Shown piece after piece: positions 1,577-57,430 of a stretch of 64,000 nt of DNA (positions are counted from its first letter, which is position 1; each line of letters starts with the position of its first letter). Origin of the DNA: a virus. Its lineage: Duplodnaviria > Heunggongvirae > Uroviricota > Caudoviricetes. The notes below the pieces were generated by a model, which saw only the letters and a program-made list of their open reading frames with translations, was not told the DNA's origin and made no database searches. Where the stretch lies: positions 323,388-387,387 of IMG/VR virus record IMGVR_UViG_3300044557_000292. One strand, written 5' to 3'. A program made the position numbers and the translations under genes.

Positions 1577-1732
1577 ATGGTAGAGACTATCGTCGGTATC
1601 GTGGTGCTCGTGATCTTTGGACTCACCCTTAGCCACAGATCATTGAGCCGACTTGTACTCATTGTAGAATCTTACCAGTTCTACCCTCGCCCTGTCCTCT
1701 CCAACCTGACCATTGCTCATCCTGTACTCTAG
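1577..1732 (+). CDS. possible small ORF (51 aa, hydrophobic N-terminus MVETIVGIVVLVIFGLTL)
   Basis: ATG preceded by GAGGGGGAG Shine-Dalgarno 5 nt upstream; below the 60-aa cutoff of the ORF track; overlaps the 3' end of the CCA gene on the opposite strand. Confidence 0.2.
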   Translation: MVETIVGIVVLVIFGLTLSHRSLSRLVLIVESYQFYPRPVLSNLTIAHPVL

Positions 1733-3115
1733 CATGTGATCATAGAGGACACCCAGGACTGGACCAGGCTTGATCCCAAGGATGCTCATCATCTGGTTAC
1801 CGTTCAACTCGGGGCGGATCTTGTCAAGATCCTCCTTGGCCTTGAGCCTGGAGACGTGATCCTCCAGTTGGTCCATGTATCCAATGATGCGGGCCTCACG
1901 ATTCTTATGGAAGGTGGTCACGTCCGCCCTGGTAAGCACCATGAGACGATCATACAGCGGACCCACCTCCTGGAGGAATCTTCGCACACCAGAATCAGAC
2001 CATAAGACCCCGTTGGGATCAGCGTACCCATGTGCCCTCATGTGAAGGGCTACCAGGTCGCTCACATCCCTAATCACGTCATGAGGATACTTCAACGAGG
2101 ATAGCCTCTTCTTCACCATCCCGGCACCAGCAGCCTCGTGGCCATCAAAGGTCACCTTCTTCCTGCCGTTGAACCTCCTGGTGGTAGTCTTGCCCACGTC
2201 ATGGAGCACTGCGGCCAGTCTGAGGACAAGATCGGGGCCTCCATCAGGGAGTCTGTCCTCCATACTGATAGCCCTGTCAAGAACGGTGAGGGAATGCTCG
2301 AAGTTAGCCTTGTGGAGTCCACGGCTACTTCTATCAGCCCTCCTCAATTCTGACAACTCGGGGAGAACGTGATCCATGAGACCCGAATCAGACATCTCCC
2401 GTAGAGCGTTAGATGGGTTGGCTGACAGCATGATCTTGTTCAACTCGTCAGCAACCCTCTCCCTACTGATCTCATCAAGACGTGGGGTCATACTCCTTAT
2501 AGCGTTCATGGTCTCATCTTCAATCTTGAACCCATACTTGCCAACGAATCTGATCGCCCTGAGCATACGGAGTGGATCTTCACCGAAGGAGATCTTTGGG
2601 TCAAGCGGGGTGCGAATGACCCCACGCCTGAGATCTTCACGGCCTCCGTAGGGGTCAACCAGCACAAGATCAGGAAGTCTGATGGCCATCGCGTTGATGG
2701 TCATGTCACGACGCTTGAGATCATCTTCGAGGCTTGAACCCCATTCCACTCGAGGCTTCCTAGATCCACGATTATAGGAATCGGAACGGTAGGTGGTGAC
2801 CTCAACGTCAGCGTCAATATTCCCGGGGAGATGCCTGCGAGCACCAATGGTCCCATACTTACGGCCAACCTCCCAGTAGCCATCTCCCCACGGCATCAGT
2901 ATGCGGGAAGACTCATCTGGTCTAGCATTAGAGGTCATGTCAAGATCTTTTGGAACACGACCAAGAAGAAGATCGCGAACCGGTCCTCCAACAAGAGCCA
3001 GTTCATACCCCCTTGACTGGTATTCCCTTCCAAGACTGATGGATGCGTTGATGAGGGGGATGGCTGCATCTGGAATCATGATGCCACCCAGACCCTTGAC
3101 TGACAGGTTCTTCAT
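1640..3115 (-). CDS. cca: CCA-adding tRNA nucleotidyltransferase / poly(A) polymerase family with HD domain
   Basis: Pol-beta-like head motifs LVGGPVRDLLLGR and RRDMTINAMA, plus C-terminal HD region (LHDVGK, HMRAHG). Start moved to MKNLSVKG (ATG at 3115), which is preceded by GGAAGGAAGG; the tracked ORF extends to 3250. Confidence 0.8.
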   Translation of the reverse strand: MKNLSVKGLGGIMIPDAAIPLINASISLGREYQSRGYELALVGGPVRDLLLGRVPKDLDMTSNARPDESSRILMPWGDGYWEVGRKYGTIGARRHLPGNIDADVEVTTYRSDSYNRGSRKPRVEWGSSLEDDLKRRDMTINAMAIRLPDLVLVDPYGGREDLRRGVIRTPLDPKISFGEDPLRMLRAIRFVGKYGFKIEDETMNAIRSMTPRLDEISRERVADELNKIMLSANPSNALREMSDSGLMDHVLPELSELRRADRSSRGLHKANFEHSLTVLDRAISMEDRLPDGGPDLVLRLAAVLHDVGKTTTRRFNGRKKVTFDGHEAAGAGMVKKRLSSLKYPHDVIRDVSDLVALHMRAHGYADPNGVLWSDSGVRRFLQEVGPLYDRLMVLTRADVTTFHKNREARIIGYMDQLEDHVSRLKAKEDLDKIRPELNGNQMMSILGIKPGPVLGVLYDHMLEYRMSNGQVGEDRARVELVRFYNEYKSAQ

Positions 3116-3265
3116 AATCAGCCTTCCTTCCATTACTGTAGAAGCATTAACGTTAAAATGACAAATGACAATTGAATCATAATATGAAGACCCATAGGAA
3201 ACGCCGCGAGCCATGATGAGAATGGCCCGCGGCGTAGCAATACTCTCCACCAGCTGGATGAGATC

Positions 3266-3790
3266 CTATCGAGCTGACGGTGAGAGTATCAGCGTGACCG
3301 CAGACCCATTATACGTGGGCGGCGTCGAGATTACAAACACGTCTTCAAGCGAAGACACCATGGTCTTCATGCAGTCATACGCGACCTGCTTGTGATCACG
3401 CTCACGTCCACGAAGCTGCACGGTGAGGCGGACTTTATCACCCCTTGATAGGAATCGTACAGCCTGGTTCTTCTTGACCTCAAGATCATGTGATTCTATA
3501 TTCGGGCGGAGACGGATCTCCTTCAACTGCTGTACGCGAGCACTATGCCGCTGACGCTTGGCCTTCTGCTGCTCTTTAAATCTTTCCTCGGACGCATCAC
3601 CCATCTTCACGATGGGAGGATCATGACGAGCATCCATCTCAATGAGGTCAAATCCCGCATCATCGGCCAATCGAAGCGCGACGTCAGTATCAATCACCCC
3701 AGCGCTCTTACCGTTATCGCCTATGAGCATAACCCTGCTCGCGGTGATGTCCCCATTGATCTTCCTACGATTATCAGCGTTCTTACCCAA
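3266..3790 (-). CDS. infC: translation initiation factor IF-3
   Basis: 174 aa; N-domain ASRVMLIGDNGKSAGVIDTDVALRLADDAGFDLIEMDARHDPPIVKMGD and C-domain LKEIRLRPNIESHDLEVKKNQAVRFLSRGDKVRLTVQLRGRE match the bacterial IF-3 architecture; no rpmI/rplT downstream. Confidence 0.85.
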   Translation of the reverse strand: MGKNADNRRKINGDITASRVMLIGDNGKSAGVIDTDVALRLADDAGFDLIEMDARHDPPIVKMGDASEERFKEQQKAKRQRHSARVQQLKEIRLRPNIESHDLEVKKNQAVRFLSRGDKVRLTVQLRGRERDHKQVAYDCMKTMVSSLEDVFVISTPPTYNGSAVTLILSPSAR

Positions 3791-7557: not shown

Positions 7558-7618
7558 AGCTTACGTTGCTCCTCGTGTGGTGGACACAATCATGTTTACA
7601 TGATGCATCTAACGCGCT

Positions 7619-7837
7619 GGATGAACCCCCGCAACGCGGGGAATACCTGTCACCTTGAATGCTACTCGAGATCGTAGCACCGCGGGGATGAACCCCGCCT
7701 AGGCGGGGAATACGGGTGAGACTGGAATCGTTGTGATTGCTGGAGGTGGGTTCAACCCCGCAACGCGGGGAATACAGTGGGCTATTGAATGGTAGTGCTC
7801 ACATCTGTTGGGTTCAACCCCGCAACGCGGGGAATAC
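7619..7837 (-). CRISPR. small degenerate CRISPR array (4 repeats, 3 spacers); trailer side of the locus
   Basis: Repeats gatgaacccccgcaacgcggggaatac, gatgaaccccgcctaggcggggaatac and 2x ggttcaaccccgcaacgcggggaatac, with 33-35-nt spacers; the reverse complement GTATTCCCCGCGTTGCGGGGTTGAACC matches the type I-E repeat architecture. Confidence 0.8.
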
Positions 7838-7908
7838 GGCCTGTTCCACGGTCTTGTCAACATCTGTTGACATCATGATAGAGCTCATACTAAACGGTTA
7901 CGAGACGG

Positions 7909-8583
7909 TTACGGAGCGGTGCAATACTCCGTGTCTATGCTCGACAGCAGGGAGGCGTTCCTCGCGGTGAACGTCTTGGACATGGACACGACGCTGGATC
8001 TATTGGATCCACCCGAACGTGATCCGACGCTGACGTTGATCTTAAGATCATCGAAGAACCCGGACACGGTGCCTACAGTGCCACCATAGAAGACCCCGCT
8101 ACCAGCGTCAACGGAGCCACTGGAATCATCCGAGGACGAGACCATAGACGTGAGGATGATCTTACCCTCATCATAGTCCGAGTCCTTCGAGGCGTCCTTG
8201 GATCTACGGATCATCCTCATCGTCCCATTGGAACCATCACCGATGGAACCATCAGGATCCTTCACGACGGTCAGCGCCACACACCTGCCGACAGTGTCGG
8301 CACTTGTGGCGCTAGCGGAATCCGCCGACTCACTGGGAATCGCCATCACCACAGTCTGGTCACCATCAGAATCGGTGGTGATCCTGAACCCAGCCGCGGA
8401 TCTTGCGTCTCTCCCCACCATCTGCATGGCTGTACTCACCTGCGACGTCGCCTGTGATCTTATGGTGGCGGAGTAGTTCGCTCTCATCAGCTGGATGGCG
8501 CTGAGAGAGAAGAACGCCATGAAGATCGCCATCGCCACAAGAAGCTCCACGAGGGACGCACCATGCTCGCCCCTATGGATCAT
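7909..8583 (-). CDS. type IV pilin-like / pseudopilin protein (class III prepilin signal)
   Basis: N-terminus MIHRGEHG|ASLVELLVAMAIFMAFFSLSAIQLMRANYS has Gly at -1, Glu at +5 and a hydrophobic helix typical of prepilin-peptidase substrates. The tracked ORF extends to 8727, but the ATG at 8583 is the likely start. Confidence 0.6.
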   Translation of the reverse strand: MIHRGEHGASLVELLVAMAIFMAFFSLSAIQLMRANYSATIRSQATSQVSTAMQMVGRDARSAAGFRITTDSDGDQTVVMAIPSESADSASATSADTVGRCVALTVVKDPDGSIGDGSNGTMRMIRRSKDASKDSDYDEGKIILTSMVSSSDDSSGSVDAGSGVFYGGTVGTVSGFFDDLKINVSVGSRSGGSNRSSVVSMSKTFTARNASLLSSIDTEYCTAP

Positions 8584-8774
8584 GCCCACACCATTGCCTA
8601 CATGTCTGTCCACATTATTGTCTACACCGGTGTCTGCACCCATTCGAGCATGTCCGAGCGTCCGTCCATACGCATATGTCCTCATCTTAATCTTCATCCT
8701 ATTCCCCCGTGGATCTAGTGGCGTCAACGAGCATCGAAGTCGTATAGTAGCTTATGGTATCACCACGCGAGACG

Positions 8775-10105
8775 GGTTCAACCCCGCAACGCGGGGAATA
8801 CCATCACTGGAGCCATCACTGGAGCAATCACAGTCAGGTTCAACCCCGCAACGCGGGGAATACGCTGCCGCATTACTGACTTCACGACCGTGAACCAGGG
8901 TTCAACCCCGCAACGCGGGGAATACCACACCGTTTGCAGCGAAGCTGCCTACCGAATCTAGGTTCAACCCCGCAACGCGGGGAATACGGAACGCTCTCTC
9001 TTTACTCTCAAGACCCGTCGAAGGGTTCAACCCCGCAACGCGGGGAATACTGATCTTCGTCTTTCCGGACTCAGTTTTGGTCAGAGGTTCAACCCCGCAA
9101 CGCGGGGAATACGCATTGATCGTTCTTATTGCGTTGAGAATGATACAGGTTCAACCCCGCAACGCGGGGAATACTTGAAGCCGGAGCCGGCTCACAGGAA
9201 ACGAAGCCAGGTTCAACCCCGCAACGCGGGGAATACTTGAAGCCGGAGCCGGCTCACAGGAAACGAAGCCAGGTTCAACCCCGCAACGCGGGGAATACAG
9301 ACGGCGGGCTAATCCATGAGCCGGGTAAGCGCAGGTTCAACCCCGCAACGCGGGGAATACCAAGCGCTATAATCTGTATGATGCGAAGCATACTAAGGTT
9401 CAACCCCGCAACGCGGGGAATACGTCTGTCGCACGTTGTTCTGAGATGAAATCTCCAGGGTTCAACCCCGCAACGCGGGGAATACTTTGCGATCTAATTC
9501 GTCCGCTTCGTTTGTAGAAAGGTTCAACCCCGCAACGCGGGGAATACTTGTTTCAATAGGATTGGCTCAGATTCAACTATAAGGTTCAACCCCGCAACGC
9601 GGGGAATACTCGAATCAGAAGAGGAGATTGCTGAGATGGCAGAAGGTTCAACCCCGCAACGCGGGGAATACCTGCACACGAAGCCTGATCCAATACCACG
9701 CGTAGGGGTTCAACCCCGCAACGCGGGGAATACTGATTATTTTTGTCTTTCTGTTTAGTTATAATATAGGTTCAACCCCGCAACGCGGGGAATACCACGC
9801 CTGCGATCTGCCACACGGGCTAGCACTGAGGGTTCAACCCCGCAACGCGGGGAATACCCATTGAATTTCGACTTTCTTCAGATCGAGTCTAGGGTTCAAC
9901 CCCGCAACGCGGGGAATACTTCAGTGCGCTTGGGTACTAGCACAGGACGGTGAGGGTTCAACCCCGCAACGCGGGGAATACAGTTCATGTTCTTCGATGA
10001 TGAGTAGCCGAAGATGGGTTCAACCCCGCAACGCGGGGAATACGTCTAGTTGGTCAACGTTGTTCGTTGCTACTACAAGGTTCAACCCCGCAACGCGGGG
10101 AATAC
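8775..10105 (-). CRISPR. CRISPR array, type I-E-like repeat, 22 repeats and 21 spacers (period 62)
   Basis: Perfect repeats ggttcaaccccgcaacgcggggaatac, equivalent to GTATTCCCCGCGTTGCGGGGTTGAACC on the minus strand, with a stem CCCCGC/GCGGGG like I-E. Spacers are 34-35 nt; two adjacent spacers (9177-9210 and 9239-9272) are identical; degenerate repeats lie at the low-coordinate end, so transcription is from the minus strand. Confidence 0.95.
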
Positions 10106-18489: not shown

Positions 18490-19749
18490 TCAGTACTGCT
18501 CGATGGAAACAGAATCGCTCTTGTGGTCAATTCTAGCAATGCTGAGGAATCCGCCCTTGTCCACCCTCGTCTCCAGATTGAAGATCTTACTGAACTCCCT
18601 TGGGTCATGACGATGTTCGTTACGATGCCCGTGGAATTGTATAACATCGGTATTCGCATCTTCAACGATCTTGTCAATATCAATCTTGTAGTCATGAACC
18701 ATTGGGCTCCCCCCGGTCCCGTACCACCAGGTCGACCCGCTCGTGAAGCCAATGTCATATGACCTGTAACCATCCAGCTCATGGTGCTCAAGCATGGCTG
18801 GATGTACTCCCCCATGAGACGAGAAGTAGTGCTTACCATCATAATAGAATGGGAAGTAGTCAACAAGATGAGTATCAATCAACCGCCCGTACCTCCGGAG
18901 GTTCTCTACTGAACCGTGAACATACTTAGAATCCCTTAGAATCTCCTCAATTGTCTTCCTCGTGGACAAAGAGTACGGCTCCCATACTTTAGATCCATAG
19001 TACTTAAAGTAACTGTCATGATTGCCCTTGATGAATACCCTGTTCGTATCATTGATATGATCAATGATCCAATCAAACATTGGCCCGGCTTCATCTTCAG
19101 GCCCACGATCCATAAGGTCACCACAGAACACGGTGAACTCACGAGGATTAATATTGTCTGCGCCAGATCTTACGAACGTGGAGTAGCAGCCCTGAATATC
19201 CCCAATCACCCTGACGTTCGAGTACTGGGAGAGCTCTGTCTCTTGAATCTTCCCTTGACCGCAGAACTCATCTACCGTCATTGCTGACTCGCTCCTATTG
19301 ACCTGAAATCTCCTCGTATCAGTCCAAGTCTTCTCCACCTCAGCGTCAGTCCAAGGTCTGTTCGCCCTGTGGGAACGCTCAATAACCTCTTCCAGTGATT
19401 GTTCTCCCTGAACGTTGACGAACACGACCTCGTAATTGTACTCATGTGCGAGATTCAGGATAGGATTAATCTTCTTGCGCTTTGAGTTCGTCCAATCAAA
19501 TATGATAGCATCCCCGGAACGCATCCTGCGCTCTATAATCTTGCAGGCGATGTCTAATGCTGTCCGTATGTTCTCGTTCGTAGAGTCACACCCGTAGGCG
19601 ATCTTACCATTATGATAATACGGCCTGTTCGGATCGATGATTCTCAATATGGAGTCAACGGATACGGTCTGGTCCTCCAGATGCTGTCTACGGATCAGGG
19701 TGGTCTTTCCTGACCCGTGCGCTCCCCGTATAATAAATATTTTACTCAT
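18490..19749 (-). CDS. polynucleotide kinase-phosphatase-like protein (P-loop kinase plus calcineurin-like metallophosphoesterase)
   Basis: N-terminal Walker A GAHGSGKTT; C-terminal metallophosphatase motifs GDIQGCY, GDLMDRGPE, GNHD, HGG and FHGHRNEH. Confidence 0.7.
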   Translation of the reverse strand: MSKIFIIRGAHGSGKTTLIRRQHLEDQTVSVDSILRIIDPNRPYYHNGKIAYGCDSTNENIRTALDIACKIIERRMRSGDAIIFDWTNSKRKKINPILNLAHEYNYEVVFVNVQGEQSLEEVIERSHRANRPWTDAEVEKTWTDTRRFQVNRSESAMTVDEFCGQGKIQETELSQYSNVRVIGDIQGCYSTFVRSGADNINPREFTVFCGDLMDRGPEDEAGPMFDWIIDHINDTNRVFIKGNHDSYFKYYGSKVWEPYSLSTRKTIEEILRDSKYVHGSVENLRRYGRLIDTHLVDYFPFYYDGKHYFSSHGGVHPAMLEHHELDGYRSYDIGFTSGSTWWYGTGGSPMVHDYKIDIDKIVEDANTDVIQFHGHRNEHRHDPREFSKIFNLETRVDKGGFLSIARIDHKSDSVSIEQY

Positions 19750-19770
19750 AAGTCAATAGTAACAATAAGG

Positions 19771-19860
19771 GGTGAACACCGCAACGCGGGGAATACTCTT
19801 GAATGATCTCCCGTCACCAAGTTTGAATACAGGTTCAGACCCGCCTACACGGGGTTCACC
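19771..19860. CRISPR. solitary degenerate CRISPR-like unit (2 diverged repeats, 1 spacer-length insert)
   Basis: ggtgaacaccgcaacgcggggaatac, then a 34-nt insert, then ggttcagacccgcctacacggggttcacc; sits exactly between the topA stop (19861) and the PNK start (19749). Confidence 0.6.
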
Positions 19861-20949
19861 CTAACGCTTCCTTGAAACCCTTCCAGATGCGGGCTTCCTC
19901 CTCGCAGGATGATCTTTCTGATAATCATCCCATATTTCCTTAGCCCGATCAGGAGACAGCGCCCTGGGATCTTCCCCATCTGGAAGCGATATGAATACAG
20001 CACGACCACGCGGAGCATTCTTATGACCCAGCCACGCCCCCCTCTTCCCTATTCCAGTGAAGAACCCGTCACCGAGCTGTCGTGGTAGCTTCACCTCTGA
20101 GAACATCTGCTCAGCATCTTGAAGGGTCACCGTGTCCTCAGTGAGACCACCGTCCTTGGGAAGCGTCATGTTCACGGGCTTAGCGCTCTTCACTGGTGAA
20201 CCATCCTTATGGATCCTCACGGCCTGCACGTAAGAGCCATACTTACCATTCCTAGCCGTCACCTGCCATCCAGCATACGGGCCGTCCTTCAGTATCCCCA
20301 GGACACGATTCACGGGCGATTTTGCCTCATCTAGTAGCTTCCTGCACGCGCCCGGCGTGAGGGCGTCTTCATCTGTTAGAACGGAATCATCCAGCTTCAC
20401 GCTCTTCACGTACCCAGAATCATTCTTCTCCCCCGAGGGGTCTTCAAGCCACGCGCCAGACCTGTTCACCCTGACCACGTACCCGCCGTTGAGATGAACC
20501 TCCGACAGCGTGTTGATCTCATTCCAGTCAATATTCCTAGCGAGACCATTCACCCTGCCATCAATGCCGTCAGGAGCCTTCCACACGCCATCAAGGAAGT
20601 CATCCCTTGATAGCGATCCGTCACCGATCTTATCAAGATCTTCCTCCATGGATGCGGTGAACCCGTAGTCAACGTACCCCGGAATCTTATCCTCAAGAAT
20701 CTGGGCGACCTTCATGCCCGTCCATGTCGGCGCCATCGCCCTTCCCTTCTTCTGCACGTACCCGCGCTTCTGATTCACGGTCACGAGGTTAGCATACGTT
20801 GACGGTCTACCAATACCAAGTTCTTCCAACTTGGCCACAAGTTGCGGCTCTGTGAACCTTGCCGGAGGTGTAGTCGTGTGCATGGTCGAGGATGCTGTTG
20901 ACAACTCACATTCCTCCCCAACCTTGAACTCATGCGTATTCCTTGCCAT
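19861..20949 (-). CDS. topA: DNA topoisomerase I, C-terminal portion (downstream of the in-frame TAA)
   Basis: TPPARFTEPQLVAKLEELGIGRPSTYANLVTVNQKRGYV matches the conserved topo IA domain III/IV region. Confidence 0.75.
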   Translation of the reverse strand: MARNTHEFKVGEECELSTASSTMHTTTPPARFTEPQLVAKLEELGIGRPSTYANLVTVNQKRGYVQKKGRAMAPTWTGMKVAQILEDKIPGYVDYGFTASMEEDLDKIGDGSLSRDDFLDGVWKAPDGIDGRVNGLARNIDWNEINTLSEVHLNGGYVVRVNRSGAWLEDPSGEKNDSGYVKSVKLDDSVLTDEDALTPGACRKLLDEAKSPVNRVLGILKDGPYAGWQVTARNGKYGSYVQAVRIHKDGSPVKSAKPVNMTLPKDGGLTEDTVTLQDAEQMFSEVKLPRQLGDGFFTGIGKRGAWLGHKNAPRGRAVFISLPDGEDPRALSPDRAKEIWDDYQKDHPARRKPASGRVSRKR

Positions 20950-20967: not shown

Positions 20968-22389
20968 TTATTCTTCACCGTCATCATACACGGACAGGAA
21001 TCCCCTGTCATCTATCCTCGTACTACTCGTCGTGAACACGGCCTTACCGTCACTAGATGTAATCGTGATCTTTCGCGTGATCCCCCTCGCAGGGTTCATC
21101 TGGCTAGCCACGGTCCTCCTGTACACGAGATCATAGACCTCACCAGCCTTAGCGTCATATGAGGAAGATGCCGTCAGCCCCCTGATCTTCGCTGGATCAT
21201 AGAATATTCCCGTTGATTCCTCTACAACAGGACGGATGCACTCGTGACCCTCCTGAGCATTCTTAGACTTCGACTTGTATATGATCGGCTTTGATGGCAT
21301 CTGTCCACCGTACTGTTTACGGATAATACTCCTCGCCGCCCTCACGGCCTCATCTGCCATCGCTGGGCTGTCCGTCCTTGAGTATGTTTGATACGTGTGC
21401 TCGAAGAGCTGCTGGGCTATACTCATAGCCCTGCTGGCCGTGAGCCCAAGCATGGATCCAACATTCTGCTGGTATGATGACGTGGTGTACGGGGTTGGAG
21501 GATTCCTCTTATAGGGCTTCTCCGTAATGTCAGTGATACTGTACTTTTTTGACTTCAGGTCTTTTAGGATCTTCTTCACATTATCATCACTGAGGGTGAG
21601 CTTATCTGAGGATCCATCCTTCAGCATGCCGTCAGGACCGTAATCAGATCCCGATGCTATTCTACTCCCATCGTACTCCACGAGGCTAGCCGTCAATTCG
21701 GCTTCCGTCCCCCTGTTAAAAACAGCCTCAATGGATCCATATGACGCCTTCACGAAGCCTAGGCGATCCTTCTCCCTGTTCACGACGAGGCGCAGGGTGG
21801 GTGACTGCGCCCTGCCTCCAGACGTCCCAGACCCTACCGTCTTCCAAAGGTATGGGGAGATACTGAACCCGAAGAGACGATCATAGACCTGCCGGGCCTC
21901 TGCCGACTCGGCCTTCCGCACGTCTATACTAGCATATGACTCCAGACCGGCAAGCACTGCCCGCTTCGTGATCTCATGCCAACTCGCCCTGCGGACATCC
22001 ATGCCAGACTTCTTGAGATCTGATTCTAGCGACTGCACGACCTCGTATCCAATGAGCTCTCCCGCCTCGTCCGGATCAGTACTCACATAGAAATGCTTCC
22101 ACCTGCCAGACCTGACCTCAGATCTGATCTCACCCCACTGCTTACGATTCTGAGGGTCATGATCTAGGAGACGCTCATAACGCCCACTCCGCACGTCGAT
22201 CGAGTAATCGCCGTACCGTTCACGCTCTTGACTAGTGCTCTTCTTCGGGTCCTTGAGCTCGAACATGAAACCCTTCGTGGCCATGATCTTCCACCCGCTG
22301 CCAAGGAACCCAGTGATCTCCCTGGCCTTGGTAGGCGACTCAACGATCATGAGGCCGCCGTCACGCTGAATGTCTTCTATGATTGCCAT
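20968..22389 (-). CDS. topA: DNA topoisomerase I, N-terminal portion (TOPRIM plus domain II), ends at an in-frame TAA
   Basis: LMIVESPTKAREITGFLG TOPRIM motif; the stop (TAA at 20968-20970) is in the same frame as the downstream ORF and separated from its ATG by 18 nt. Confidence 0.75.
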   Translation of the reverse strand: MAIIEDIQRDGGLMIVESPTKAREITGFLGSGWKIMATKGFMFELKDPKKSTSQERERYGDYSIDVRSGRYERLLDHDPQNRKQWGEIRSEVRSGRWKHFYVSTDPDEAGELIGYEVVQSLESDLKKSGMDVRRASWHEITKRAVLAGLESYASIDVRKAESAEARQVYDRLFGFSISPYLWKTVGSGTSGGRAQSPTLRLVVNREKDRLGFVKASYGSIEAVFNRGTEAELTASLVEYDGSRIASGSDYGPDGMLKDGSSDKLTLSDDNVKKILKDLKSKKYSITDITEKPYKRNPPTPYTTSSYQQNVGSMLGLTASRAMSIAQQLFEHTYQTYSRTDSPAMADEAVRAARSIIRKQYGGQMPSKPIIYKSKSKNAQEGHECIRPVVEESTGIFYDPAKIRGLTASSSYDAKAGEVYDLVYRRTVASQMNPARGITRKITITSSDGKAVFTTSSTRIDDRGFLSVYDDGEE

Positions 22390-45756: not shown

Positions 45757-45915
45757 TCAGATTCAACTATCATCAGAACACAACGATCTACTGTACTTCT
45801 GATGATAATCTTAACGATGATGCTTGGAAAAGCGTCCTCATGTATAACGTTACTTCCTGAGCGCTGAATCGTCATAGAATCACGAGATCTTGAATTCCAT
45901 CGTTGCACTATTCTT
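45757..45915. repeat. copy 2 of the ~160-bp conserved noncoding element (see 423..585)
   Basis: Perfect 11-bp stem tatcatcagaa/ttctgatgata with an 18-nt loop. Confidence 0.6.
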
Positions 45916-53687: not shown

Positions 53688-53758
53688 CCCCCGCAGACCC
53701 TATAATCCTAGGATATGCTTCCCCGTGTTACACGGCCAGCGTTGAAATCTAGCCCTTC
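53688..53758. repeat. promoter/operator-like ~70-bp repeat, copy A
   Basis: ccccgcagaccctataatcctaggatatgcttccccgtgttacacggccagcgttgaaatctag; contains TATAAT, the CCTAGG palindrome and the GTGTWACAC palindrome. Confidence 0.6.
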
Positions 53759-53886
53759 CTGAAAAACACAATCTCCAGTGGTGAGGGCAGCATATTCCTC
53801 ACCACCAGCGACCACCGTCACCCCGGCGCAGGTCATCAACGACATCGCCAGTCACACGACGTATGCCTGGCGCCTAGTCCCCTCGG

Positions 53887-54410: not shown

Positions 54411-54483
54411 TCCCCAGCAGACCCTGTAATTCCTAGGATATGCTTCCCCGTGTTACACGGCCAGCGTTGAAATCTAGCTCTTC
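54411..54483. repeat. promoter/operator-like repeat, copy B
   Basis: tccccagcagaccctgtaattcctaggatatgcttccccgtgttacacggccagcgttgaaatctagctcttcc. Confidence 0.6.
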
Positions 54484-54534
54484 CCCAAAAAGAGCATTAG
54501 AAAGGGCTAAAACCCTTACTGTTATGATCCACAG

Positions 54535-56055
54535 TTACTTCAACCGCGCGTTCTGGAGTCCATAAGCGCGGTTATGATTGGTGCCACGAGCACTGGGCTC
54601 GTCCATCTCGTCAAGCAGCTCACCGACATAAGTCATGTCAACAGCGTCCTCGTGGAACGCCTTCCTCTCATAGACCAGTCTGCTCATGTCAGCATGATCT
54701 AGAACATAATCTAGAGCGGACTCATCTTCAAGATCACGTGGACGAGCATCGTCATCCCCGTGAGTGATCCTGCTCTCAAGTACGTGACGGAGACGCTTCA
54801 CGCGGAGATACCTATCCGACTTCACCTTGGCCATGTACCCGTCACGGCTATAGATCACGACGCCCTCACGATCTGACCCATGAGCACGATTGATAGCATC
54901 AGCTAACTCCTCGCGATTGCTAACGACCTCAGATCTTCTAATGTCCTCATTCCTCCACCCAATTCCATTCATGATCTCATCGTCAGCATCACGATCAATG
55001 CTGAACACTGAATCGTTCCTGACGCAGTGAATGAAGAAGCATTCCGAGTGGTCGTATGGAATGATGTGCCTATCAGAATTATGGTCAATGATCTCGCACG
55101 CGATCGTCACGTCATGATCATAGATAACGTCATGCACCCTCTTGATGAGGGCGGGATCGTTACCGAGCTGGTTCCTGAACGCCTCATCGACCAGAGCAGA
55201 GTAGTCCGTCTGTCCACTCTTCGAGTAGAATCTAAGAGTCCCATCACGACGCGCGCCAATGAGTCCAAGGAACCCGTTCTGCTTCAACTCCACGGTTGCT
55301 GGATACCTGACTCTGTCAAGAACCTTCTCAAGGGTGGTCTCATCATTCTCCCCAATATTGAAGAACTTGTCGAATCCACGCATGACGACTCTTCCAGAAT
55401 GATCTAGGAATAGGCCGCGCGCCTTTGAGGAGTACTCATCCCAATCATGATTGTAGAACGCCCTGCGGGTGAAGTTGCAAGCGTAGACATCATCCTCGCC
55501 CTCGACCTTCTTCACCCTGACATTGCGATTAGCCGCCATCTTAACGAGGAGGTTGCTGTCATTCTTGAGATCATTAACCGTGAACGGTATGGTATCCTCA
55601 AGACGGGAGTACTGTCTGCGAACATACGACTCGGGAACACGATCGTCCTCTGGGCGGGTCTTATTCCTCGCTACGAGATCTTCCAGCGGAACGTCAGTCA
55701 AGTCTTCAATCCTGACGTCAGCATGAGCTCTGGTCGCCAGGTCAACGAGGCCTTTAAGATCGGGTATGGCGATGTTCTGAGCGTCAAAGATCACACTCAC
55801 TCCAGCCTTGAGCAGTCTTGACGCCAGGTCACGAGCGGAATGGACTATGACGTCTTCACCGTTCTTTCCAACACCCTCGTTCCTGGTCTTTAAGAGCTGC
55901 CATCCCTGACGAGATCCTCCCAGCATGGTCCTCATCGAGTCGTATGATACGATGACCGAGCCAGTCTTCCTGGACAACTCGCGGGCTCGCGTGGTCTTAC
56001 CGCTCCCAGGAAGACCCCTCATGATCGTGAGCGTGGTCTTTTCAAACTTCTTCAT
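54535..56055 (-). CDS. P-loop polynucleotide-kinase-like domain fused to a nucleotidyltransferase (RNA/DNA ligase-like) domain
   Basis: N-terminal IMRGLPGSGKTT...SYDSMR (Pnk-like); C-terminal VELKQNGFLGLIG resembles ligase motif I (KxDG with D replaced by N) plus downstream conserved blocks. Confidence 0.5.
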   Translation of the reverse strand: MKKFEKTTLTIMRGLPGSGKTTRARELSRKTGSVIVSYDSMRTMLGGSRQGWQLLKTRNEGVGKNGEDVIVHSARDLASRLLKAGVSVIFDAQNIAIPDLKGLVDLATRAHADVRIEDLTDVPLEDLVARNKTRPEDDRVPESYVRRQYSRLEDTIPFTVNDLKNDSNLLVKMAANRNVRVKKVEGEDDVYACNFTRRAFYNHDWDEYSSKARGLFLDHSGRVVMRGFDKFFNIGENDETTLEKVLDRVRYPATVELKQNGFLGLIGARRDGTLRFYSKSGQTDYSALVDEAFRNQLGNDPALIKRVHDVIYDHDVTIACEIIDHNSDRHIIPYDHSECFFIHCVRNDSVFSIDRDADDEIMNGIGWRNEDIRRSEVVSNREELADAINRAHGSDREGVVIYSRDGYMAKVKSDRYLRVKRLRHVLESRITHGDDDARPRDLEDESALDYVLDHADMSRLVYERKAFHEDAVDMTYVGELLDEMDEPSARGTNHNRAYGLQNARLK

Positions 56056-56893: not shown

Positions 56894-57017
56894 AGATCAA
56901 TCCTTTCAGCACTAAGAACAAAACCACAGGTCTATGATTCTATGATAACACAAAAAGCGCTATCAGCTCGCCAGACCATAAGATTATGCCAAATCGCATC
57001 TTTTAAGACGATTCCTG

Positions 57018-57090
57018 GGAGGGGCTAGATTTCAACGTTGGCCGTGTAACACGAGGAAGCATATCCTAGGATTATAGGGTCTGCGGGGAA
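57018..57090. repeat. promoter/operator-like repeat, copy C (inverted relative to A and B)
   Basis: ggaggggctagatttcaacgttggccgtgtaacacgaggaagcatatcctaggattatagggtctgcgggga is the reverse complement of copy A with 3 mismatches. Confidence 0.6.
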
Positions 57091-57378
57091 GACGTCATAG
57101 TGCCGTCGGTGGTCTGCAGCACGCGGCTATACCACGAGCGCAAGTGGAATGCAGCGCTCGACAACGCCAGGCCATAGTGATGGGTGGTGCTCAGAGACGA
57201 TGGTGAAGCAAGCCACAGAGGCCCCGGTGATGATGGCGATACCCAGTGGTGATCTATGATGGCTACGCCAAGTGTCTGTGGTCTGCGGGGAAGCTAATGG
57301 TCTGTGCCTACGGCATCGCCGGGCCATATCCTCACCGTTGGAGACCATGATTTTTAGAAAGGGCGTAATAGCAACGCT

Positions 57379-57430
57379 TCTAGTGTAACACAAGGAAGCA
57401 TATCCTAGGAATTACAGGGTCTGCGGGGAT
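57379..57430. repeat. promoter/operator-like repeat, copy D (partial, inverted; B-like variant)
   Basis: ttctagtgtaacacaaggaagcatatcctaggaattacagggtctgcgggga. Confidence 0.55.

Follow-up and report, generated by a model that had tools for sequence, protein, structure and literature searches.

A degenerate one-spacer CRISPR unit between topoisomerase and polynucleotide kinase genes of a probable huge phage, most probably a duplicate of the trailer end of the phage's own array

A repeat-spacer-repeat unit between topA and the PNK-like gene

The stretch of DNA considered here comprises 64,000 nucleotides (nt; positions 323,388 to 387,387 of the IMG/VR virus record IMGVR_UViG_3300044557_000292, Caudoviricetes) and is probably part of a huge phage; it is referred to as the window, and all coordinates below are window positions. 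Between the stop codon of topA-C, which encodes the C-terminal half of a topoisomerase I divided over two ORFs, and the start codon of a polynucleotide kinase-like (PNK-like) gene lies a gap of 111 nt (19750-19860). It is occupied by a unit of two repeat-like elements around one spacer-like insert (19770-19861) that resembles CRISPR sequences and is located 9.7 kb from the end, at 10105, of a long CRISPR array. The unit directly adjoins the stop codon of topA-C, the final base of which is the first G of copy 2 in CRISPR RNA (crRNA) sense, and leaves 20 nt free ahead of the PNK start. A preliminary description had already recognized two diverged repeat copies around a single insert of spacer length that fill the intergenic gap at this distance from the array, and sequences, coordinates, and placement are as given there. 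The features of the locus are:

18490-19749, minus strand: downstream gene, PNK-like kinase-phosphatase (Pfam AAA_33; PHROG 8238; polynucleotide kinase PHROG)
19770-19796, minus strand: copy 1, downstream repeat-like element; in crRNA sense GUAUUCCCCGCGUUGCGGUG followed by UUCACCC; 24/27 versus the array core
19797-19831, minus strand: spacer-like insert; in crRNA sense (U)GUAUUCAAACUUGGUGACGGGAGAUCAUUCAAGA; 34 nt plus a variable junction base
19832-19861, minus strand: copy 2, repeat-like element on the upstream (promoter-proximal) side; GGGUGAACCCCGUGUAGGCGGG followed by UCUGAACC(U) when read in crRNA sense; highly diverged
19770-19781 and 19850-19861, no strand: outer 12-nt inverted repeat (GGGTGAACACCG / CGGGGTTCACCC), closing a long hairpin over the unit
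19861-20949, minus strand: upstream gene topA-C (Pfam Topoisom_bac profile positions 298-410 plus Toprim_C_rpt)

In crRNA sense, the whole unit thus reads GGGUGAACCCCGUGUAGGCGGG and UCUGAACCU (copy 2, hairpin and handle parts), GUAUUCAAACUUGGUGACGGGAGAUCAUUCAAGA (spacer), and GUAUUCCCCGCGUUGCGGUG and UUCACCC (copy 1).

Copy 1 (GGGTGAACACCGCAACGCGGGGAATAC) differs by only three substitutions from the 27-nt core of the array repeat (GGTTCAACCCCGCAACGCGGGGAATAC). Outside the array, it is the sole match with three or fewer mismatches, for which dinucleotide shuffles expect 0.00, and no further site on either strand comes within seven edits of the core. Copy 2 (GGTTCAGACCCGCCTACACGGGGTTCACC, 19832-19860) is eight edits away and, taken alone, would not be convincing as a repeat, since three unrelated sites, all within open reading frames (ORFs), also reach eight edits in approximately 123 kb of strand sequence. 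Its core begins, however, exactly 62 nt after that of copy 1, which is the period of the main array, and such a register would arise by chance with a probability of about 3e-4 (estimated from the observed match rates, allowing for +/-3 nt in each direction). The term "solitary", under which the unit had been introduced, is consequently wrong, as the pair stands in exact array register. Divergence within copy 2 is uneven, with one edit in the handle part relative to the canonical 7 nt (a single inserted C) and nine edits over the 20 nt of the hairpin part. Its orientation is ambiguous as well (eight edits to the reverse complement of the trailer-end repeat at 7686, nine global edits to the forward canonical repeat), which may reflect recombination through the palindromic core. 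The insert, with 34 nt and the junction base, equals the array spacers in length. The locus therefore has the layout of virus-borne mini-arrays, in which a single canonical-length spacer stands between two repeats on a viral genome; no cas gene was found in the window. Judged by its sequence, the unit is a real CRISPR-derived mini-array with one spacer, of a kind already described in phages.

The main array and its repeat class

The array with which the unit was compared, and the terminal portion of that array, are located as follows:

7607-10105, minus strand: main CRISPR array; 24 exact 27-nt cores (GGTTCAACCCCGCAACGCGGGGAATAC) plus two degenerate trailer-end repeats; period 62
7619-7713, minus strand: trailer-end unit (degenerate repeats at 7619 and 7686 around a 39-nt spacer); probable source, or else a paralogue, of the unit in the gap

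The leader is at the high-coordinate side of the array and the degenerate repeats, 7619 (GGATGAACCCCCGCAACGCGGGGAATAC) and 7686 (GGATGAACCCCGCCTAGGCGGGGAATAC), are at the low-coordinate end. The array repeat, GUAUUCCCCGCGUUGCGGGGUUGAACC(Y), is read on the minus strand as GUAUUCCCCGCGUUGCGGGG followed by UUGAACC(C/U) and is predicted to fold into a GC stem of six pairs (-11.0 kcal/mol), after which comes an 8-nt handle. Type I-E repeats are approximately 28-29 nt long and consist of a 5' flank, a GC-rich stem of six to seven pairs with a loop of 3-4 nt, and a 3' handle of 8 nt that ends in ACC(N); their arrays adjoin cse1-cse2-cas7-cas5-cas6e. A scan of species-representative genomes with the generalized pattern CCCCGC-N3-5-GCGGGG-NTGAACC recovered more than 120 bacterial arrays, mostly of the form GTGTTCCCCGC....GCGGGGATGAACCG with a period of 61. 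The closest of these (L074, from a metagenome-assembled genome of the Bacillota) differs from the phage repeat by three edits and is located directly downstream of, and on the same strand as, cas3-cse1-cse2-cas7-cas5-cas6e-cas1-cas2, with a Cas6e of family PF08798. From its similarity to these bacterial arrays, one of which stands beside a complete I-E cas operon of the same strand, the phage array repeat, which displays the properties of the class, is assigned to type I-E, and the crRNA sense is the minus strand of the window, as for the flanking topA and PNK genes.

No cas gene was found in the 64 kb by Pfam or PADLOC, either near the array or elsewhere, and the exact array repeat had no match in the viral and metagenome collections or among 185,579 species-representative genomes. 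The period of the phage array is 62 (63 in two places) as compared to mostly 61 in the bacterial I-E arrays (L011-L130), and that of L074 alternates between 61 and 62. The phage array is furthermore split by an insert of 937 nt (7838-8773) between two perfect repeats, so that four repeats lie towards the trailer and 22 towards the leader. This insert contains an ORF of 272 amino acids (aa; 7909-8727, minus strand), the product of which weakly matches a pilin-like motif for prokaryotic N-terminal methylation at E = 2.6e-4, short of the Pfam cut-off. Two adjacent spacers (9175-9208 and 9237-9270; GGCTTCGTTTCCTGTGAGCCGGCTCCGGCTTCAA in crRNA sense) are identical, a tandem duplication of a repeat-spacer unit.

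Probable origin from the trailer end of the array

Two rare repeat variants point to where the intergenic unit came from. The variant GGRTGAAC occurs solely in copy 1 and in the trailer repeats 7619 and 7686, and in none of the 24 canonical copies; on the plus strand, the 5' variant of copy 1 reads GGGTGAAC, and the trailer-end repeats carry GGATGAAC. A CGCCTA loop variant is likewise restricted to copy 2 and trailer repeat 7686. Since both types of variant are shared with the trailer end and follow one another in the same order at the two places, the unit is suggested to be a duplicate, most probably of the terminal unit of the main array. That it derives from the phage's own I-E-class array in one way or another is very probable. 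The variant pattern of copy 1 was not found in IMG/VR.

The spacers have far less in common. The unit spacer and the spacer of the trailer-end unit share only the 8-mer CTTGAATG (shuffle p = 0.0175), and spacer homology between the two units is not established by a single 8-mer at p of about 0.02. A different origin, namely a mobile element similar to a miniature inverted-repeat transposable element with GGGTGAAC ends, was considered and rejected, as the extended arms are present only here and copy 1 is plainly a CRISPR repeat.

Predicted hairpins, transcription signals, and spacer targets

In copy 1, a G-to-U change creates a C.U mismatch that shortens the stem from six to four pairs, and the predicted hairpin has an energy of -4.7 kcal/mol as compared to -11.0 kcal/mol for the canonical array repeat. 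The stem predicted for copy 2 is a different one, with five pairs (CCCGU/GCGGG, one of them G.U) and a 4-nt loop. Of the Cas6e-type stem to which the preliminary description had drawn attention in the minus-strand transcript, four of six pairs are kept in copy 1, whereas copy 2 has another stem; the predicted stems are weakened and not abolished.

Closed by the outer inverted repeat, the 92-nt unit as a whole is predicted to fold at -36.7 kcal/mol, versus -35.6 +/- 4.3 kcal/mol for canonical repeat-spacer-repeat units of the array, and its z-scores against shuffles are just -1.7 and -2.3. The hairpin over the entire gap was accordingly rejected as a special structure, its energy being that of ordinary array units. 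No intrinsic terminator was called in the gap or next to it; no U tract is present and the outer stem is followed by CCUUAUUGUUACUAUUGACUU. A consensus scan of the minus strand, which does not cover phage-specific promoters, detected no sigma-70-like promoter in or just upstream of 19750-19960.

Neither the unit spacer nor the 24 array spacers had a significant protospacer match in the window or in ten related loci. Searched as a pattern with N at every sixth position, the unit spacer also had no match in IMG/VR or the metagenome collection. Among partial targets of the seed type in the window, none rose above chance and no perfect 10-position seed occurred; the weak hits numbered 32, versus approximately 18 in mononucleotide shuffles.

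Distribution among related phages

Identical copies of the unit are present in two further sequences of the same phage strain, each from another sample, L006 (JGI 3300044857) and L007 (SRR16378546). A close relative, L001 (SRR16379729), has 98.6 % identity across 2783 nt. Its sequence includes 59 nt of the gap, in which it has one substitution (approximately 0.8 would be expected neutrally). This substitution lies at the base of the copy 1 stem and changes the 3' arm from GCGGUG to GCGGUA, so that a further potential stem-base pair is lost, with the predicted four-pair fold and its energy unchanged.

At greater distance, the unit is missing. In L002 and L003, which are 80-86 % identical to the window, homology extends exactly as far as the stop codon of topA-C and returns 15 nt ahead of the PNK start; in between, 550 unrelated nt take the place of a segment of 97 nt in the window:

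19765-19861, no strand: swapped segment, 97 nt; BLASTN homology to L002 stops at 19862 and resumes at 19764

In L002, the junction (2570-3152) contains an acidic ORF of 130 aa on the opposite strand and an AT-rich spacer of 190 nt; the ORF product had no Pfam match and no homologue in the window. The more distant relatives L004, L008, and L010 also do not carry the unit. Here, the PNK gene follows directly after other genes, 9-41 nt from the upstream one, and no repeat-like sequence or array was present in the loci examined.

The unit therefore appears confined to one strain and its 98.6 % identical relative, and it lies at a junction where cassettes are exchanged; because L002 holds an unrelated 550-nt segment at the very same place, the topA/PNK junction is regarded as a hot spot of cassette exchange. 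Conservation of the kind expected of a regulatory crRNA-like RNA was not observed, the unit having been found in the same strain and the 98.6 % relative only.

Genomic setting

Nearly all ORFs of the window are on the minus strand, and the majority are without a Pfam family. Those with Pfam matches include the gamma/tau clamp loader of Pol III, class I ribonucleotide reductase together with NrdI, a deoxynucleoside monophosphate (dNMP) kinase, an RNA ligase-kinase fusion, and TelA, LemA, and SPFH proteins. Phage hallmarks are an rIIA-like protein of 946 aa and the PNK-like gene, which matches phage PHROG families. Translation genes typical of huge phages are located at 1640-3790, namely those for an HD-domain enzyme of the CCA-adding/poly(A) polymerase type (1640-3250) and for IF3 (3266-3790). 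A tRNA/tmRNA scan of the window returned no gene, and Rfam assigned no family at gathering score anywhere in the window, including the array, with only sub-threshold noise in the gap. No related DNA was matched among GenBank phages.

The topoisomerase I upstream of the unit is encoded by two ORFs of 473 aa (N half) and 362 aa (C half) separated by 18 nt, of which the former is:

20968-22389, minus strand: N-terminal half of the split topoisomerase I (Toprim and Topoisom_bac profile positions 2-288)

As the same split is kept in the 80-86 % identical relative L002 (82-2573 of that sequence), it is probably a genuine two-subunit enzyme and not the product of a sequencing error. On the other side of the unit, homologues of the PNK-like gene are limited to five protein clusters, and none was confirmed in IMG/VR. 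Two of these clusters are represented on JGI contigs (491 kb and 350 kb) in which most genes are hypothetical. Its relatives bear a Metallophos domain, and one of them adjoins a T4-type RNA ligase. The window contains two genes of the RNA-repair type, that is, the PNK-like gene (18490-19749) and a kinase fused to a T4 Rnl1-type RNA ligase (54535-56055); in the distant relative L010, the PNK homologue comes directly after an Rnl1-type ligase.

Further repeated sequences occur elsewhere in the window. An element of approximately 61 nt (TCCTAGGATATGCTTCC.CGTGTTACACGGCCA.CGTTGAAATCTAGCC...) occurs in four intergenic copies that enclose the RNA ligase-kinase gene together with adjacent genes; two copies share one orientation (53706-53766 and 54431-54491), and the other two are inverted (57010-57071 and 57349-57410). 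A direct repeat of 132 nt with 78 % identity is found at 428-559 and 45759-45890, 45 kb apart. At its edge, array spacer 9548-9581 has a weak match of 17/18 nt (422-439), and the same spacer has an exact match of 14 nt at 45757-45770 (E = 0.01).

Comparison with known systems

Several kinds of CRISPR-like elements outside canonical arrays have been described, and the phage unit shares traits with each of them. RNA anti-CRISPRs (Racrs) and the solitary repeat units (SRUs) are, like the unit, intergenic sequences on phages that resemble CRISPR repeats (Camara-Wilpert et al. 2023, PMC10651486). They are widespread and include type I representatives, and they are defined as matches to known repeats with no other (partial) repeat associated. 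When the 100 bp that flank a candidate contain a partial repeat match, SRUFinder drops the candidate or labels it as a mini-array (PMC10651486). The phage unit, with a second copy 62 nt away, is not solitary in this sense. Racrs match the CRISPR-Cas subtype of their host and bind its Cas6 and Cas7. They are often directly behind their own promoter and expressed as small RNAs, whereas no promoter was found upstream of the phage unit, and a GC mutant of RacrIF1 is used there as a control (PMC10651486). Two other differences are that the better copy of the phage unit has a weakened hairpin and that the phage owns an array of the same repeat. The activity of Racrs reportedly depends on the stem in which copy 1 has its C.U mismatch, and the GC mutant of RacrIF1 reportedly lost activity.

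Virus-borne mini-CRISPR arrays (Faure et al. 2019, listed as ref. 4 in PMC10651486; Medvedeva et al. 2019, PMC6858448) share the organization of the unit, as they likewise have a single normal-length spacer between two repeats, are carried by a viral genome, lie away from cas genes, and are leaderless. In contrast to the phage unit, their spacers usually match related viruses and at least one of their repeats is intact; the unit spacer had no target in the searches made, and neither repeat of the unit has escaped degeneration. The phage also owns a long array of this repeat at a distance of 9.7 kb. On IMG/VR contigs (L132 and L135-L138), similar I-E mini-arrays were observed in which one repeat is intact and the other degenerate. 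These unrelated viral contigs carry an intact repeat with a TTGAACC handle, a spacer of approximately 32 nt, and a degenerate second repeat (GTGTTCCCTGCGTCAGCGGGGAT...), which is near-identical across different contigs and suggests a shared family of phage mini-arrays.

The third comparison concerns the regulatory CreA/CreR of hosts and the Cracr arrays of phages (PMC10120712; bioRxiv 10.1101/2024.10.29.618823), which have the same psi-R/psi-S/psi-R (ψR-ψS-ψR) layout with degenerate repeats and include I-E examples. Degenerate repeats are normal in such regulatory mini-arrays, and the action of phage Cracr arrays versus I-E systems has been shown experimentally (bioRxiv 10.1101/2024.10.29.618823). 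Partial PAM-proximal pairing (9-10 or more bp) with the promoter of a cas or toxin gene defines these elements. They are also found conserved in related loci, which the phage unit is not; moreover, the described CracrIE array has a ψS of 21-24 nt as compared to the 34-35 nt of the unit spacer. Finally, the unit bears the same variants (GGRTGAAC and the CGCCTA loop) as the degenerate trailer repeats of its own array and differs from these in being detached, 9.7 kb off, between two genes of the housekeeping type.

Probable origin and decay, and possible function, of the unit

The preferred scenario is that the trailer-end unit of the phage's own I-E-class array was copied by repeat recombination into the variable topA-C/PNK junction. 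Because its crRNA sense is on the strand of the flanking genes and it has neither a promoter nor a leader of its own, it would be co-transcribed within the topA-PNK message. Both repeats have drifted: in the downstream one, the predicted Cas6e-type stem is shorter by a third, and the upstream one retains just a generic GC stem of five pairs and a near-canonical 5' handle. At most, a Cas6e supplied by the host or encoded elsewhere in the phage might cut the unit inefficiently, yielding one crRNA-like RNA. That the unit has little or no present function is slightly more probable than the opposite. The same modest degree of belief is attached to the account as a whole, in which a mini-array derived from the phage's own array by duplication of its trailer end is now a decaying by-product of recombination with little or no function. 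The balance favours decay, given the weakened stems, the restriction to one strain, the stem-base substitution in L001, and the lack of a detectable target, promoter, or leader. Of the possibilities raised in the preliminary description, a decayed mini-array is accordingly the best fit.

Several observations nevertheless weigh against this account. The spacers of the unit and of the trailer-end unit share just one 8-mer, so the duplication would have to be old, or the link indirect or the two units independent. Spacer length and register have been kept exactly. Furthermore, the parts that would remain in a mature crRNA (the handle of copy 2 and the hairpin half of copy 1) have accumulated 2 edits over 27 nt, versus 11 edits over 27 nt in the repeat parts that would be discarded (Fisher p = 0.009, in a post hoc test with non-independent edits; part of the asymmetry goes back to the trailer variants). 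Selection on one guide would be expected to leave such a pattern, which speaks for a residual or recent function. The failure to find a target is weak evidence, since the host and the rest of the phage genome are outside the data searched and the metagenome collection lacks L006, a known carrier of the unit. Only four sequences cover the unit, three of them identical, so that selection cannot be measured.

A different interpretation, which we regard as rather unlikely, is that of a functional single guide. Cas6e would cut the topA-PNK transcript at both hairpins and release one crRNA-like RNA with the handle UCUGAACCU, a 34-nt guide, and a 3' hairpin, which host Cascade would load. Such an RNA might attack a competing phage, as with virus-borne mini-arrays, or, similar to Cracr/CreA, repress a host cas or toxin promoter by partial pairing. 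The ψR-ψS-ψR layout in exact array register, the better preservation of the mature-crRNA parts (2/27 versus 11/27 edits), and a stem-loop in copy 2 directly 5' of a near-canonical handle are all consistent with this idea, as are the degenerate repeats that are normal for regulatory mini-arrays and the precedent of phage I-E Cracrs (bioRxiv 10.1101/2024.10.29.618823; PMC10120712). In addition, the phage evidently uses I-E-type crRNAs (the array has 24 spacers), yet no cas gene is present in the window. On the other hand, no protospacer and no seed-type match above chance in the window were found, the 80-86 % identical relative has not kept the unit, the handle contains a 1-nt insertion, and the 3' hairpin is weakened, with a further stem-base substitution in L001, which is the closest relative. 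In addition, the ψS described for I-E Cracrs, at 21-24 nt, is not of full length. A more elaborate form of the same idea, a working guide within a housekeeping operon that is excised by host Cas6e from a read-through precursor, has its handle and 3' hairpin selectively kept amid otherwise decayed repeats, redirects host Cascade to a target in the host or in a rival phage, and uncouples the two messages by the same cut, seems improbable.

Function in the RNA itself rather than in its guide is less probable still. The long hairpin or a Cas6e site could terminate, stabilize, or uncouple the topA and PNK messages, with the CRISPR origin being incidental, as would suit the outer 12-nt inverted repeat that closes the whole unit into one hairpin and the position of the unit, directly next to the stop codon of topA-C and 20 nt away from the PNK start. 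No U tract is present and no terminator was called, however, the fold energy is that of ordinary array units with z-scores of only -1.7 and -2.3, and the relatives do without the unit (L002 with its 550-nt insert, the distant ones with PNK within 9-41 nt), so this explanation appears very unlikely, and with it the termination element that had initially been envisaged. Highly improbable, too, is a Racr-like decoy, the hairpins of which would bind host Cas6e and Cas7, cause aberrant complexes, and lower I-E immunity. In favour of it can be said that the sequence is intergenic, repeat-like, and on a phage without adjacent cas genes, and that Racrs are widespread (PMC10651486); the second copy 62 nt away, however, falls outside the SRU definition given there. 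Moreover, the hairpin of the better copy is weakened, there is no promoter immediately upstream, and the unit is not conserved. If Cas6e or Cas7 were sequestered, the phage would presumably lose the use of its own 24-spacer array, which has the same repeat, as it presumably depends on the same Cas6e and Cascade, having an array and no cas gene in the 64 kb. The repeat mimic acting as an RNA anti-CRISPR that the preliminary description had put forward is thus not supported, and with stems weakened and conservation in related phages absent beyond strain level, it appears largely to fall on its own terms. Mere chance resemblance, without any derivation from CRISPR, can practically be neglected: copy 2 alone is within the chance range, with eight edits and three other such sites, but the match of copy 1 at 24 of 27 positions, where chance expects 0.00, effectively refutes it, and the exact 62-nt register and the rare variants that the unit shares with the trailer repeats speak against it as well.

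No new class of element is opened up by the unit under either of the two leading explanations. Were it a working guide embedded in the operon, it would represent a natural CRISPR guide and processing site built into a messenger RNA, and if it is processed at all, it would add a huge phage, with an unusual in-operon position, to the known phage crRNA-like RNAs that hijack host I-E Cascade. If, in line with the favoured account, it is merely a decaying duplicate, it would offer a small illustration of how standalone mini-arrays are born from a copied trailer unit, and such copied trailer units would constitute raw material for regulatory or anti-defence RNAs.

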